Position numbers and translations under genes: made by a program. A stretch of 17,297 nt of DNA, taken from positions 1-17,297 of the forward strand of contig CAVSBT010000005.1 in assembly GCA_963726245.1 (NCBI GenBank). Direction: 5' to 3'. Below the pieces are notes generated by a model, which was given only the letters and a program-made list of their open reading frames with translations, searched no databases and was not told where the DNA came from. Of the stretch, positions 4,368 through 10,651 are shown piece after piece. Position 1 is the stretch's first letter. Each line of letters opens with the position of its first letter. This stretch comes from an uncultured Chloroflexia bacterium (GTDB lineage Bacteria; Chloroflexota; Dehalococcoidia; DSTF01; JALHUB01).

Positions 4368-4376
<9 letters not shown>

Positions 4377-4970
4377 GAAAGCGCTCCTTTCTCGTACAGC
4401 AGGCTTCCCACGCGGGCGCTTGCCTTCGCCGGCCGGGTCGGAAGCGGATGGGCTTGGCGCCCTCGGCGCCTCTCGATGCGTGGCAGCGGCGCCGCGCGTC
4501 ATGGCCACGCGGCCCGTGCGCACCAGCTCCCGGATGCCGTAGGGCCGCAGCATCTCGAAGATGGCGTCCACCTTGTCCTCCGCGCCCGTCACCTGGACGA
4601 TGACCGACTCCGGCGACACGTCGATGATGTCGGCCCGGAAGATGTCCACGACCTCGATGACGGCGCTGCGGTTGGCGGGGCTGGCGCTCACCTTGATGAG
4701 GGCCAGCTCCCGGGCCACCATGTCCTCGTCTGTGAGGTCGCTGATCTTGACGACCTCGATGACCTTGTAGAGCTGCTTGGTGACCTGCTCGACATCGGTG
4801 GTCGCGCCGTCGACGACGAAGGTCATGCGCGAGAGGCCCGGCATCTCGCTGTGGCCCACGGCCAGGCTCTCGATGTTGAAGCCCCGCTGGCGCCACTTGC
4901 TGGCGATGCGGTTGAGGACGCCGGGCTTGTTCTCCACCAGGGCAACGATGGTGTGCTTCACCGTCTTCAC
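4368..4970 (-). CDS. ilvN: Acetolactate synthase small (regulatory) subunit; true 3' end uncertain
   Basis: HTIVALVENKPGVLNRIA...RGFNIESLAVG...SRMTFVV...EQVTKQLYKVIEV...RELALIKV...IRELVRTGRVAM (ACT domain). The GTG start overlaps the ilvB TGA (GTGA). Confidence 0.92.
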
Positions 4971-6700
4971 GGCCGCACCTTCTCTTTCTCCCGCCGCGGC
5001 GAGGACGCGGGCGCTTCTATCTTGGGCTGGTCGATGGTCTCCGCCAGGCTGGCCCCCGGCGGCACCATCGGGTAGACAGTTCTCCATCCCCTCCACCTGG
5101 AAGTCGATGAGGACCGGGCCCGGGTGGTCGCATGCGCCTTCTCGATGGCCGGCTCCACCTCGGCGCTTGTCGGTGACCCGCAGGCCCACCAGGCCGAAGG
5201 CCTCGGCCAGCTTCACGAAGTCCGGGCTGAACTCGCGGGTGGAGACCAGCCGGTTGCCGTAGAAGAGGGTCTGCCACTGGCGCACCATGCCCAGGTAGCC
5301 GTTGTTGATGATGGCGAACTTGATGGGCAGTTCGTGCTCAACGATGGTGGCCAGGTCCTGGAGGGTCATCTGGAAGCTGCCGTCGCCGCAGATGCACCAC
5401 ACCAGGTCCTTCGGGTAGGCGAACTGGACCCCCATGGCGGCGGGCACGTCGAAGCCCATGGTGCCCAGGCCGCCGGAGGTGACGAAGGAGTTGGGCTTGT
5501 CACCCCAGAAGAACTGGGCCGCCCACATCTGGTGCTGGCCGACGCCGGTGACATAGTAGGCGTCGGCGCCTGCTGAGCTCGTAGATCTTCTTGATCACGA
5601 ACTGGGGCAGGAGCTCGTCGTTCTCCGGGATGAGGATGGAGGGGTGCTCCCGGCGTACCTCCGCGATCCGCTCCAGCCAGGCGTCGTGGCGCGCGGGCTC
5701 CACCTGCTCGTTGAGGGCTGCCGAGCACGTTCTTCACGTCGCCCGACGATGGGCACCGTTGGCTTGACGTTCTTGCCGATCTCCGCCGGGTCGATGTCGA
5801 TGTGGATGATCTTGGCGTGGGGCGCGAAGTCCTTGAGGCGTCCCGTCACCCGGTCGTCGAAGCGCATGCCGATCGCCACGAGCAGGTCGGACTCGGTGAT
5901 GGCGATGTTGTTCCAGTACATCCCGTGCATGCCCGGCATGCCCATGAAGAGAGGGTGGGAGCCGGGGAAGCTGCCCAGTGCCCAGCAGGGTGGTGATGAC
6001 CGGGATGTGGGCCTTCTCCGCCAGCTCGCGCAGCTCGTCATAGGCGCGGGAGATGATGACGCCGTGGCCCGCCAGGATGAGCGGCCGCTCCGACTCGGCG
6101 ATGAGCTGGGCCGCCTTCTTCGATCTGCGTCGGGTGGCCCTGGACGGTGGGCCGGTAGCCCCGCAGCTCCACCTTCTCCGGGTAGTGGAACTCAGTCTGC
6201 TGCTGCAAGACGTCGCGGGGCACGTCGATGAGCACCGGCCCCGGCCGTCCCGTGCCGGCGATGTAGAACGCCTCGCGCACCGTGCGCGCCAGGTCGTCCA
6301 CGTCCAGCACCAGGTAGTTGTGCTTGGTGATGGGCAGGGTGATGCCGGTGATGTCCGCTTCCTGGAAGCCGTCGCGGCCGATGAGCCAGGTCACCACCTG
6401 GCCGGTGATGGCCACCATGGGCACCGAGTCCATCCAGGCGTTGGCGATGCCGGTCACCAGGTTCGTGGCGCCCGGGCCGGAGGTGGCGAAGCATACGCCT
6501 ACCTTGCCGGTCACGCGGGCATAGGCGTCGGCGGCGTGGGCGGCGCACTGCTCGTGGCGCACGAGCACGTGCTTGATCTGCGGGTACGAAGGCAGGGCAT
6601 CGTAGAGGGGCAGGTTGGCCCCGCCAGGCAGGCCAAAGATGACCTCTGTGCCTTCTCTGGCGAGGCATTCCATGATGATCTGGGCCCCGTTTAGCTTCAT
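4967..6700 (-). CDS. ilvB: Acetolactate synthase large subunit, biosynthetic type (several apparent indels)
   Basis: [49 protein letters not shown] and the TPP motif GDGSF...NN, distributed over ORFs 6038-6700, 5595-6041, 5500-5703, 4368-5528 and 4967-5158. Confidence 0.95.
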
Positions 6701-7004: not shown

Positions 7005-7037
7005 AACGAAATAGTCCCGCCCCCGAAGAGACGGGAC
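7005..7037 (-). terminator. Intrinsic terminator of the T-box
   Basis: GUCCCGUCUC-UUCG-GGGGCGGGAC followed by UAUUUCGUU. It is mutually exclusive with the antiterminator. Confidence 0.88.
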
Positions 7038-7270
7038 GGATGCCCGCGGTACCACCCTTCTTGCTTCGCCACGGCCGCCACGGTGGTGGCCACAAACGAA
7101 GCCACTCGATGCGCGCTAACGGGCGCCTCCGGCCGGACCTACCGTCCGCCCCCGGCGGACCTGGGCTCGGCGGCTCCGGGGCGAGTTCGGGCTTTCTGCG
7201 GCGCCGGGCTTTCACCTGCTCCCGGCTCTCTTTAGCCTTCGAATAGCCCTACTACTCCCCTTCACAGCCT
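7005..7270 (-). promoter_or_regulatory. T-box riboswitch, Leu specifier (CUC), transcriptional type
   Basis: Stem I has a GA/K-turn motif (GGCUGUGAAGGGG...CCCCGGAGCC), AGUA, an AGAGA bulge, a GGUGAAAG loop and specifier GAA-CUC-G (7185-7183). A CCGUUA element and stem III (GCUUCG...CGAAGC) follow. The antiterminator is AAGGG-UGGUACC-GCGGG...CCCGU-CUCUU (T-box 7044-7059). Confidence 0.95.
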
Positions 7271-7291
7271 TCTGAGGGGCTAGTGTCGCCT

Positions 7292-8505: not shown

Positions 8506-9450
8506 ATGGTGATGTCGCACCGCTACCTGGCTATCCTCGTGGCTTTGGGCAGCCTCTGGGGAGCCAGCTTTCTTTTCATCAAGGTGGTCGTCGATGAGAC
8601 GTCGCCTGCTGAAGTTGCCGCCGGCCGCGTCTTCTTCGGGGCGGTGGCCCTGGCGCCTTTTGTCTGGCGACGCGGCCTCCGTCTCAGCGGCCGGCGCTGG
8701 CTGCTGAGGGACCTGCTGCTGCTCGGCGCCGTCTCCACCGCCATCCCCTTTGTGCTCATCTCCTGGGCCGAGCTGCACATCGACAGCGGCATCGCCTCCG
8801 TCCTCAACTCCACCATGCCGCTCTGGACCGCCGTCTTTGCCGGCATCTTCCTGGTCGAGGAGCGCCTGACGCCGTTGATGGTTGCGGGCCTGCTGCTGGG
8901 ATTCGTAGGAGTCGCCGTTCTCAGCGGGGGTGACCTTACCAGCCTGCGACAGGCCGGCCTCTTGGGTCACCTGGCCGTCGTGAGCGCTGCGGCCTTCTAT
9001 GGCGCCGGTGCCGTCTTCGCCCGCGCCCGGCTCCAGGCCGAGGACCGCGTAACCCTCTCGGCCATGCAGCTAATGATGGCCTTCCTCGTCCTGGCGCCCT
9101 TTTCGCTGGCTGTAGACGGAATCCCCAGGCTGAACCTGCCGGCCAAGGTGTGGCTGGCGTGGATCATCCTGGGCGTCTTCAACACCGGCCTGGCCAACGT
9201 CGTCTACTACTGGCTCATCCGGCACGTGGGGAGCGTGCGCAGCTCCCTGGTGACCTACATCATCCCCATAGTAGGCCTTCTGCTGGGCGCCACCGTCCTG
9301 GATGAGAAACTGGGACTCAACGCATTACTGGGCGCCGCTCTCATCGTGGCGGCCGTGGCGTTGGTGGCCGGCAGCTTCCGGCTCGCCACACTCAGGAGCA
9401 CCCTACCCCAGGGGGCCGAGCGTCATTCGGAGGCCACCGCCGGTAAGTAG
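8506..9450 (+). CDS. EamA/DMT-family transporter
   Basis: LWGASFLFIK...GIASVLNSTMPLWT...ERL and a second repeat ending YIIPIVGLLLGATVLDEKL; about 10 hydrophobic segments. Confidence 0.92.
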   Translation: MVMSHRYLAILVALGSLWGASFLFIKVVVDETSPAEVAAGRVFFGAVALAPFVWRRGLRLSGRRWLLRDLLLLGAVSTAIPFVLISWAELHIDSGIASVLNSTMPLWTAVFAGIFLVEERLTPLMVAGLLLGFVGVAVLSGGDLTSLRQAGLLGHLAVVSAAAFYGAGAVFARARLQAEDRVTLSAMQLMMAFLVLAPFSLAVDGIPRLNLPAKVWLAWIILGVFNTGLANVVYYWLIRHVGSVRSSLVTYIIPIVGLLLGATVLDEKLGLNALLGAALIVAAVALVAGSFRLATLRSTLPQGAERHSEATAGK

Positions 9451-9515
9451 CGACGGCGTGGCGCTCCGTCTAGGTAGAATCCCTTAGACCCGCCCCTGGA
9501 ATCCCTAGATTCATA

Positions 9516-9544
9516 TTGACAAATCCCTCACATAATGTTAGTAT
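9516..9544 (+). promoter_or_regulatory. Strong sigma70-type promoter in the EamA to pyrE-like intergenic region
   Basis: TTGACA (9516-9521), 17-bp spacer, TAGTAT (9539-9544), with an extended TG at 9536-9537. Confidence 0.75.
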
Positions 9545-9598
9545 CACATATGAGGCCATCTGGCCCCATGAGCGCACAATCCGAAAGGAGGGTGCTTC

Positions 9599-9646
9599 AT
9601 GGTAGTAGACCGCATACGTTGGGGTGTATGGCAGGTTGACACGTAA
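9599..9646 (+). CDS. Putative 15-aa small peptide MVVDRIRWGVWQVDT
   Basis: AAAGGAGGGT Shine-Dalgarno just before ATG 9599, about 50 nt downstream of the promoter. TAA is followed immediately by hairpin 9648-9669. Confidence 0.45.
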   Translation: MVVDRIRWGVWQVDT

Positions 9647-9802
9647 GGCCCTGTCGAGAACGGCAGGGCACCCCCGCGCGGCGGGCTCCACAGGCGATTG
9701 ATACAGTGTGGGAGCCTGTGAGAGGGAATGAGACCAGCTGTATCAGGGGATTACCCCTGCGGTGGGGCCTTGTGAGCCGCGAACCAACAGCGAAATAGAG
9801 AT

Positions 9803-9845
9803 TACAACAGAGACTACGTCTACACGGACGTAGTCTCTTGTTGTA
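9803..9845 (+). terminator. Long hairpin, probable terminator
   Basis: AGAGACTACGTC (9809-9820) / GACGTAGTCTCT (9827-9838) forms a perfect 12-bp stem, extendable by TACAAC/GTTGTA, followed by TGTTGT. Confidence 0.55.
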
Positions 9846-9868
9846 TCCTTAGCGCCGAGAGGTCGGCT

Positions 9869-10516
9869 GTGCCTCAGGCTCTCTACCGCCGAAGCAATCT
9901 CTGGCTCGCGGAGACCCTCTGGAAGCTGGGCGCCATTCAGTTCGGCGACTTCAGCTTCGGCCACACCGTCGTCCACTCGCCCGTCTACGTTAACCTGCGC
10001 CTGCTCGTCAGCAACCCCACGGCCCTCTGGCGGGCTGCGCAGGTTATCCTGGACGGCGTCGTGGCCCTCCAGAGGATGCGCGAGCCCCGCGTGACCCAGT
10101 TCGAACTGGTGGCCGGCGTGCCCTTCGGCGGCCTTCACCTGGCCACGGCCTACTCCCTCACTGCCAAGATCCCCATGATCTACCTCCACCCGCGACAGGA
10201 CGGGGCCGGAAACGACATCGAGGGTCTCTACAGCCCCAACCAGACCGCGCTTATCATCGACGACCTGATCACGGGCGGCCGCAGCATCCTGGAGACCGCC
10301 CTCTGCCTGGAGGAGGCGGGCATCCGCGTACGCGACGCGGTGGTGCTCGTGGATCGCCAGCAGGGCGGCCGCGAGCGCCTGCGGGAGTTCGGCATCAACC
10401 TGGTCTCCATCCTCACTCTAGAGGTCGTGCTCAACTACCTGATGGCGAGCGGCAAGATTCCCGAGGAATCGTATCGCCGCTCAATGGAGTACCTGAGGGC
10501 GAACCGCGGGTCCTAG
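9869..10516 (+). CDS. Type I phosphoribosyltransferase, orotate PRTase (PyrE)-like but divergent
   Basis: GAIQFGDF...SPVYVNLR, VAGVPFGG, PRPP-binding LIIDDLITGGRS and VLVDRQQGG motifs. Confidence 0.8.
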   Translation: MPQALYRRSNLWLAETLWKLGAIQFGDFSFGHTVVHSPVYVNLRLLVSNPTALWRAAQVILDGVVALQRMREPRVTQFELVAGVPFGGLHLATAYSLTAKIPMIYLHPRQDGAGNDIEGLYSPNQTALIIDDLITGGRSILETALCLEEAGIRVRDAVVLVDRQQGGRERLREFGINLVSILTLEVVLNYLMASGKIPEESYRRSMEYLRANRGS

Positions 10517-10551
10517 CCAGAGGGCACGGCCCATAGTGCATCGAATAGGCG

Positions 10552-10586
10552 CATGTCCTATGCCCTATGCGCTATGCATCATGCCC
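10552..10586 (+). repeat. Degenerate heptamer tandem repeat (YATGYNN x5)
   Basis: CATGTCC TATGCCC TATGCGC TATGCAT CATGCCC, with partly complementary units just upstream (10522-10551). Confidence 0.5.
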
Positions 10587-10651
10587 CCGCCTTGTGCTAC
10601 ACTCTCGCCGACGGCCGGGTTGGAGAGCTTCGGGGAGGTGCGAACTTGCGT

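Follow-up and report, generated by a model that had tools for sequence, protein, structure and literature searches.

A short open reading frame and structured RNA ahead of an orotate phosphoribosyltransferase-like gene: a candidate dual-function unit in an order of uncultured Dehalococcoidia

We analysed a 17,297-nucleotide (nt) stretch of contig CAVSBT010000005.1 (assembly GCA_963726245.1), here called the window, and asked what is made by an element at positions 9516–9845 of its plus strand. The element combines a promoter, a short open reading frame (sORF), a hairpin just past the stop codon (H1), a three-way junction and a terminator-like hairpin, and it is followed by a phosphoribosyltransferase (PRTase) gene. 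The original prediction had proposed three answers: a dual-function small RNA (sRNA), a peptide gene or a leader of the PRTase gene. The sRNA/peptide and the leader answers both hold in part because the unit is linked to the PRTase gene in 60 genomes and unlinked in 15. Its coding signature, its structured RNA and the unlinked genomes favour the former and its adjacency to the gene in 60 of 75 genomes favours the latter, while the classical attenuator among the leader forms found no support. We give about even chances to a leader-derived, dual-function RNA with a micropeptide that also acts in trans.

Coding signature, distribution and linkage

An sORF of 12–32 amino acids (aa), mostly 13–18 codons and preceded by a Shine-Dalgarno (SD) sequence, was present in 92 of 92 loci (duplicates counted). 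The SDs are AGGAGG-like and lie 4–11 nt upstream, and the start is ATG in most loci. The peptide, typically of 13–17 residues, is variable in length and sequence at its N-terminus and has a C-terminal decapeptide with the consensus R-[IV]-[RL]-[WYF]-G-[VIK]-W-Q-V-D; the stop follows directly after ...WQVD or one codon on, and its loss lengthens the sORF in 8 of the 92 loci. The two Trp codons are non-adjacent, some members have C, L, F or Y in place of the first, and G, V, Q and D are as fixed as Trp. Coding potential was assessed on 17 distinct sequences that came from blastn, hence without pre-selection by codon pattern. Their minor alleles numbered 13, 12 and 59 at codon positions 1, 2 and 3, and pairwise codon differences in the sORF frame were synonymous in 438 and non-synonymous in 257 cases, while the two remaining plus-strand frames gave 35/663 and 96/590. 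The peptide conservation that the original prediction had named as a check thus appears as a strong coding signature. The peptide is among the most conserved sequences seen across these loci; its last ten residues are under strict purifying selection, and the sORF is probably translated. Two minus-strand ORFs were rejected as conserved objects: 9470–9691 (73 aa), whose frame has 90 synonymous and 605 non-synonymous differences and no Pfam match, and 9743–10189, also with no Pfam match. At one locus 5' of the PRTase gene (L114, G029:C1) the sORF reads ...CGCTGGGGGTCTGGCAAGTCGAC, one G short of the usual run, and is frameshifted; this may be a homopolymer error in a single-contig genome or a genuinely broken sORF.

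The 93 genomes of the window's order were surveyed with a signature pattern (W-Q-V-D codons, 6–7 nt, GCCCTR); the signature, PRTase and linkage counts include one genome flagged unpublished (G045). The signature occurred in 78 of the 93 genomes (43 of the 48 that are of high quality) and in 37 of 40 genera, and a reversed control pattern matched once in the 93. Further genomes carry variants missed by the pattern, and 78 is a minimum. A PRTase ortholog (E ≤ 1e-40) was found in 86 genomes; by pattern, 75 genomes have both features, 3 the element only and 11 the PRTase only. In 60 of the 75 genomes with both, the PRTase starts 153–234 nt past the signature on the same strand (by family, f4 31/31, f5 14/15, f3 2/2, f2 10/12 and f1 3/15). 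The upstream neighbour is not conserved, an EamA gene being found there only in the window's genus. The label "orphan" that had been given to the window's unit is not supported, because this copy is tied to the PRTase downstream.

Unlinked copies occur in 15 genomes, 12 of which belong to f1. In four of the 15 (G003, G009, G011, G012) the PRTase lies 180–270 kb away or on another contig, where a dehydrogenase-like ORF precedes it and the short stretch between the two has a -10-like box of the form TGnTATTAT and no leader. Promoter, SD and peptide are retained by the orphan units in at least four f1 genera, and so are the RNA helices and the terminator. They stand between unrelated genes, often facing a convergent GT2 gene, with no co-directional gene after them; their neighbours include an unknown 450-aa protein, GT2, a sortase, a LytR protein, a response regulator and others, and no conserved modifying enzymes were found beside the orphan copies. 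Because the unit, peptide included, is kept where the PRTase has moved away, we infer that it must also act in trans.

Ten of the 11 PRTase-only genomes were inspected. Seven do carry the element; in one of these there is a one-base frameshift in the G-run, and in the others the hairpin is a variant form. The remaining three, all of family f2, have a short PRTase leader without sORF (L115 in G038, L116 in G018, L117 in G041), which has a promoter with TTGACA and the terminator-like hairpin GCCGGAGGCC...GGCCTCCGGCC with a U-tail and lacks sORF, H1 and junction. G018 has a full orphan unit elsewhere, encoding MKRFSTNIRVLYGVWQVDR, while G038 and G041 gave no element by a looser pattern, though the PRTase is present.

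Outside this survey, blastn of 9500–9870 gave matches in 31 of 61 related genomes, with SD, ORF and post-stop hairpin as the shared core. A scan of about 185,000 species, one genome per species, for W-G-x-W-Q-V-D codons plus a hairpin arm returned 71 loci, all in metagenome-assembled genomes titled Chloroflexi, Chloroflexota, Chloroflexia or Dehalococcoidia, bar one titled 'bacterium'. The covariance model R1, which comprises H1 and the junction and excludes the ORF, matched 6 of 151 genomes drawn evenly from the class, 5 of them in the window's order; the sixth match (G164, E = 6.8e-4), outside the order, was set aside as weak and, on reading, without the WQVD-codon motif.

Some genomes have more than one copy. 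The window's own assembly carries a second whole unit (L021, G000 contig C35:5388–5753, minus strand) that is 84% identical, with the same EamA gene upstream and, downstream, the same PRTase (91% aa identity) and a lipoprotein-like ORF. It looks like a co-binned sister population (assembly contamination 6.28%) rather than a paralogous duplication. Two signature matches each were seen in G010, G022, G228, G231, G035 and G048; of the two G035 copies, one is PRTase-linked and the other lies about 400 kb off on the same contig, and the second match in G048 (C156), which has an atypical spacer, may be due to chance.

Anatomy and RNA fold

The features of the window's copy are:

9516–9544, plus strand: sigma-70-type promoter (TTGACA 9516–9521, 17-nt spacer, TAGTAT 9539–9544)
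9554–9565, plus strand: 5'-terminal hairpin P0, GGCC-AUCU-GGCC, from the fold
9566–9602, plus strand: hairpin sequestering SD and start codon, CAUGAGCGCAC paired with GUGCUUCAUG, inner UCC-GAAA-GGA
9599–9646, plus strand: sORF of 15 codons plus TAA (9644–9646), product MVVDRIRWGVWQVDT
9647–9669, plus strand: hairpin H1, (G)GCCCUGUCG-AGAA-CGGCAGGGC, near-invariant
9677–9781, plus strand: three-way-junction domain (P1, P2, P3), from covariation and relatives
9683–9691/9762–9770, plus strand: helix P1, with an outer extension 9677–9682/9776–9781
9699–9706/9738–9745, plus strand: helix P2, TGATACAG (9699–9706) being the exact complement of CTGTATCA (9738–9745)
9746–9749/9754–9757, plus strand: helix P3, longer form 9744–9759 (CAGGGG/CCCCTG)
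9803–9845, plus strand: predicted intrinsic terminator, a long hairpin with the tail UUGUUGUAUCC
9869–10516, plus strand: orotate-phosphoribosyltransferase-like paralog, 215 aa, GTG start, SD GAGAGG 9857–9862

The promoter matches at 10 of 12 positions, has an extended -10 TG at 9536–9537 and is the sole promoter-like site in 9300–10000 (0.2 ± 0.4 in shuffles); transcription is predicted to start at about 9551. Among 78 distinct loci, a -35 box TTGAC(A) lies about 100–135 nt 5' of the conserved Trp codon in 75 and is usually followed by a TAnnnT-like -10. Relatives also have a GC-rich hairpin at the position of P0 (GCCCG...CGGGC). The SD GGAGG at 9587–9591 lies 7 nt 5' of the ATG at 9599, and among minimum free energy (MFE) folds of 71 distinct 5' untranslated regions (UTRs), 38 have a fully paired AUG and 49 an SD with at least 3 of 4 nt paired (mean z -2.3). 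H1 pairs 9648–9656 with 9661–9669 and starts 1–2 nt past the stop, with a possible extra pair at G9647. The terminator hairpin (-27.1 kcal/mol) has a core of 13 pairs at 9809–9838, 6 of them GC, and a terminal GC-rich hairpin, usually with a U-tail, was present in 47 of 47 loci parsed. The RNA 9551–9850 as a whole has an MFE of -140.5 kcal/mol, compared with -104.8 ± 5.4 for 200 dinucleotide shuffles, none of which was as low (z = -6.6). Promoter, SD, ORF, hairpins, complementarities and closing hairpin are thus all present where the original prediction had placed them, and these observed features are real and far from chance.

The common architecture was derived from an alignment of 28 similar loci and the parsing of 47 diverse loci. 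It runs from P0 through a hairpin holding the AUG and part of the SD, the ORF, H1, P1, P2 and P3 to a 6–48 nt linker and the terminal hairpin. H1 has the consensus GCCCUGYC...GRCAGGGC and P1 a core GGCYCC/GGRGCC across loci; P2 contains an inner GGGA...UCCC helix and a small hairpin, and P3 is a G/C hairpin with a loop of the UUAC type. Covariation was counted on 56 distinct sequences aligned to R1. In this alignment, which was fitted to the R1 structure and whose pair counts are biased toward it, standard pairs filled 91.8% of cells, compared with 79.1% in shuffles (0 of 500 as high), and 24 of 31 pairs had changes on both sides, compared with 15.2 ± 1.6 in shuffles; controls with slid partners were 37–52% paired. 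By helix, H1 was paired in 98% of cells, with compensatory changes in 4 of 9 pairs, P1 in 94%, with both-side changes in 8 of 10 pairs, and P3 in 88%. Independent compensated cases include GCCUCGUCG/CGACGAGGC in H1 and GGGUUCUGC/GCAGAAUC in P1. The strands of the junction differ between groups, as judged by eye. Covariation among homologues, the second check that had been suggested, thus appears to support the helices.

The complementarity between 9699–9706 and 9738–9745 had been taken for an H-type pseudoknot. This reading fails because relatives support a long-range P1 that encloses P2: the two strands form the nested P2 inside P1, a structure common to the relatives. They would make a pseudoknot only if the local hairpin 9684–9716 formed in place of P1, with which it is mutually exclusive. 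GGCUCCAC pairs either with GUGGGAGCC, giving the local hairpin, or with GUGGGGCC, giving P1, and the genus relatives L002 and L021 allow either pairing; a structural switch confined to the window's genus is possible. CACAGGC (9689–9695) can moreover pair with GCCTGTG (9714–9720).

The PRTase gene starts 24 nt past the terminator and has no recognisable promoter of its own. Judged from profile and structure searches, its product is a type I PRTase most like orotate phosphoribosyltransferase (OPRT). It scores 23.1 bits against Pfam PF00156 (below cut-off), 144.5 bits against NF010382 (cut-off 208) and 79.8 bits against TIGR00336 (cut-off 106.8), its closest solved structure is 2wns, the human OPRT domain (5e-32), and its relatives are named 'orotate phosphoribosyltransferase' or merely 'phosphoribosyltransferase' by their sources. 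A canonical pyrE (TIGR00336, 121.5 bits, above cut-off) and PyrR (NF003549, 240 bits) are encoded on other contigs; given that pyrE, the PRTase gene past the terminator is a second paralog.

Known families, related systems and expression

The original prediction recognised no known RNA family, and the Rfam search that it proposed agrees. At gathering score, Rfam 15 found in the whole window only a T-box at 7024–7274 (minus strand). At E ≤ 10 on 9400–9950 there were two chance-level matches, RSV_PBS (14.3 bits) and CC2171 (13.6 bits), and ARAGORN found no tRNA or tmRNA. At E ≤ 0.1 on seven related and control loci the element was unmatched, the one match being a PyrR site 5' of pyrR. The PyrR model RF00515 itself gave no match to the element at E ≤ 10 on 9400–9950 or at E ≤ 0.1 on L021, L005, L010 and L020. 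In literature text searches the string WGVWQVD occurred in no paper, and no paper joined 'structured RNA', Chloroflexi and orotate phosphoribosyltransferase; the sole paper with 'leader peptide', pyrE and Chloroflexi together was unrelated. We rate the element as a new family: its properties are unusual, and it forms part of the core of an uncultured order.

Two regulatory sites lie outside the element. A PyrR-binding-site attenuator stands directly 5' of the genome's pyrR (L099 1963–2094, minus strand, G000 contig C15); at 45.8 bits (gathering score 54, E = 0.0016) it is likely genuine, though below the Rfam threshold. The T-box RF00230 at 7024–7274 (minus strand; 102.9 bits, gathering score 93) lies 5' of the minus-strand ORF 6038–6700, which has only the N-terminal thiamine pyrophosphate (TPP)-binding domain PF02776 and is followed by the minus-strand ORFs 5595–6041 and 4368–5528. 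The TPP enzyme near 6038–6700 may be split or frameshifted.

In logic the element stands closest to rnTrpL/peTrpL and mccA, and it belongs to neither. In Sinorhizobium meliloti the trp attenuator RNA rnTrpL is an sRNA and its 14-aa leader peptide peTrpL is trans-acting (PMC7968998). The likeness lies in a short leader with a Trp-containing sORF of about 14 codons and a terminator before a biosynthetic gene, and in roles of RNA and peptide beyond cis attenuation, which is what the orphan copies here require. There is no relation in sequence or structure, however, and the trans activity of the element is putative. Its Trp codons are non-adjacent, Y, F, L or C can take the place of the first, its whole decapeptide is conserved, no antiterminator was found, its RNA has roughly double the length and contains a three-way junction, and an OPRT-like PRTase, not trpE, lies downstream. 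The mccA gene of the microcin C operon is a tiny ORF on an abundant, stable short transcript with a terminator before the enzyme gene; the enzyme comes from a minor read-through transcript, and ribosome binding controls termination and stability (PMC4231749). The anatomy is alike, with a tiny ORF on a short transcript, a terminator and an enzyme gene. The element differs in having a type I PRTase downstream and not a ThiF/MccB adenylyltransferase, a peptide of 13–17 residues ending in Asp or Asp-X and not of 7 residues with a terminal Asn, no export or immunity genes, and a structured domain of 150 nt between ORF and terminator; it is also chromosomal and core to an order.

Two further groups of leaders share parts of this design. 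In the pyr and pyrBI/pyrE attenuators of Thermus and Escherichia coli, leader-peptide translation is part of the control. The element resembles PyrR/pyr attenuators in its leader and terminator before a pyrimidine-type PRTase gene, in a genome where PyrR is present; unlike them, it is unmatched by RF00515, shows no U-rich pause region and has an sORF that ends about 160 nt before the terminator and does not run into it. TnaC and SpeFL are metabolite-sensing arrest peptides. With these the element shares a short leader ORF, conserved residues (Trp, Asp) in its C-terminal stretch at a fixed distance from the end, and a variable N-terminus. Unlike them, its last codon is not conserved, its peptide is shorter, and there is no Rho-dependent logic or downstream gene at the orphan copies; stalling on the element is putative.

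The unit is present in RNA libraries. Contigs from four metatranscriptome runs of four studies fell within 9563–9798, among them an 81-nt piece identical to the window (run X1), one of 209 nt with 4 differences (X3) and one of 151 nt with 2 differences (X7). No RNA run exceeded 7% of sampled words of 9300–10600. In the four runs no contig lay over 9300–9560 or 9828–9915, which does not amount to evidence on where transcripts end; in run X2, loose ends that resemble adapters lie against 9558 and 9563. One X2 contig (depth 277, 85% likeness) joins 9595 to 9678, skipping ORF and H1, and may represent a divergent relative rather than a processed form.

Competing explanations and meaning

If the unit is a dual-function RNA with a micropeptide, a strong constitutive-type promoter would give an RNA of about 290 nt (about 9551–9845), protected by its 5' hairpin. 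Translation from the strong, partly sequestered SD would make the 13–17 residue peptide, and past the stop codon H1 and then the three-way junction would fold. Terminated RNA would accumulate because most transcripts would end at the intrinsic terminator, and a minority would read through into the OPRT-like gene 24 nt on, which is without evident promoter of its own. Where the PRTase has relocated and acquired a promoter, a trans role would fall to the peptide, to the RNA or to both. Both the termination efficiency and read-through as the source of PRTase transcription are, we infer, as this scheme has them. Selection on peptide sequence and RNA fold alike is well supported, and so is the keeping of the unit with and without the PRTase beside it. 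The unit shares with trp/his attenuators an SD-preceded coding sORF and a terminator directly before a promoterless gene; it lacks a run of codons for a sensed amino acid in an otherwise free peptide. A classical attenuator is not supported: the two Trp codons of the unit are not a regulatory run, and a crude test found no conserved antiterminator. A riboswitch expression platform is likewise not apparent, the linker of 6–48 nt between P1 and terminator having no significant competing pairing.

Several points weigh against the dual-function reading. Translation, transcript ends and termination are predicted. The antisense frame that shares third positions with the sORF has a synonymous excess too (397/289), because of those shared positions; as a gene it was rejected solely on the ground that it is conserved over the overlap only and has no conserved start, end or flanks. 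The bias of the covariation alignment toward the R1 structure has been mentioned. Eleven of the 15 unlinked cases have the two features on different contigs, and at least one of these (G007) is probably a contig break. Predicted duplexes between orphan RNA and the 5' UTR of the unlinked PRTase were not beyond shuffles in three genomes (z = +0.7, +0.8 and -1.35). The U-tail of some terminal hairpins is poor (L012 and L062 are examples). In a crude test, the 5' arm of the terminator showed no antiterminator pairing with the preceding 60–100 nt (mean z -0.27, 1 of 47 loci below -2), and because none was found in the 47 loci, any regulated read-through is putative. The RNA evidence consists of assembled contigs with no strand or end information, and their depths sum over organisms, so that the contrast between the listed element contigs (110–1456 in X1, 160–806 in X2) and the only PRTase-gene pieces (2.7–12.9, 90–93% identical to the window) is a hint of high abundance and not a ratio.

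A purely cis-acting, metabolite-sensing leader is, in our judgement, unlikely. Either the nascent peptide would arrest the ribosome at ...WQVD upon a small molecule, or the three-way junction would bind a ligand or a protein, for example the OPRT-like protein, as PyrR does its leader; the position of the ribosome over H1 would set termination before the PRTase, and orphans would regulate other things or be relics. C-terminal conservation with a variable N-terminus is the pattern of arrest peptides, and here the ten conserved residues stand at a fixed 6–7 nt from H1, which itself begins 1–4 nt past the stop, so that a terminating ribosome must melt it. The partly sequestered SD and AUG, the lack of a PRTase promoter in linked loci, and the terminator hairpin kept before the PRTase in the sORF-less leaders of G018, G038 and G041 fit as well, as does the fact that PRT-fold proteins can be RNA-binding regulators in a genome that has PyrR and a PyrR-type site 5' of pyrR. 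A role in cis only, however, cannot explain orphans that keep the whole unit over at least four f1 genera without a co-directional gene. Nor does it sit well with the lack of an antiterminator complementary to the terminator in 47 loci, junction nucleotides that by eye are poorly conserved between groups, a position after Asp that is filled by a stop in some loci and by any sense codon in others, an unusual arrangement for a termination stall, or the failure of the Rfam PyrR model to match. Slightly less likely is a plain, highly expressed small-protein gene whose RNA structures stabilise the mRNA and whose PRTase is a passenger of leaky termination. The strongest constraint is indeed on the amino-acid sequence, the unit is autonomous in orphan lineages, its RNA contigs occur at high depth, and it has 5'-terminal and terminal hairpins, both of which are known to stabilise mRNA. 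A passenger would not account for PRTase adjacency in 60 of 75 genomes over at least four families while the upstream neighbour varies, and the near-invariant H1/P1 core and the compensated three-way junction exceed what a stabiliser needs.

Far less probable than either is an mccA-like arrangement, in which the short transcript would supply excess peptide and rare read-through the enzyme, and the peptide would be substrate or partner of the PRTase, receiving a phosphoribosyl-derived group or acting in a complex with it. The layout matches mccA-mccB (PMC4231749). Peptide and PRTase ortholog co-occur in the 75 genomes with both, and the PRTase, a second paralog beside canonical pyrE, is free for another role. 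Against this, we know of no peptide modification that depends on phosphoribosyl pyrophosphate; no conserved biosynthetic, export or immunity genes are nearby (EamA, lipoprotein-like ORF, GT2, sortase, LytR), past Asp the peptide has a variable residue or none, the looser pattern gave no element in G038 and G041, where the PRTase is present, and the PRTase itself scores as OPRT-like in NCBIfam and PDB searches. More speculatively, the decapeptide ...R-I-R-W-G-V-W-Q-V-D and its own structured RNA could be a lineage-wide regulatory pair of a new kind, which we hold to be unlikely. The nascent chain might sense a nucleotide-pathway metabolite while H1 and junction read the ribosome position, or free peptide and RNA might form a small ribonucleoprotein with a trans action on nucleotide/PRPP metabolism.

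With the dual-function, leader-derived unit as the favoured reading, the element bears on a group of organisms, the uncultured Chloroflexota, in which functional small ORFs and structured RNAs are nearly unexplored, and its RNA occurs at high contig depth in wetland metatranscriptomes. It offers a clean natural case of a leader before a metabolic gene that was kept after loss of that gene. Such retention speaks for the view that selection can favour leader peptides and leader RNAs as products for their own sake, which to our knowledge is experimentally documented mainly for rnTrpL/peTrpL. The OPRT-like paralog is marked as a specially controlled enzyme distinct from canonical pyrE, and peptide, RNA and enzyme form a defined set testable in vitro without culturing the organism. 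If the regulatory-pair reading were true, the element would be a new arrest-peptide or peptide-RNA regulator, core to an order of uncultured Dehalococcoidia.

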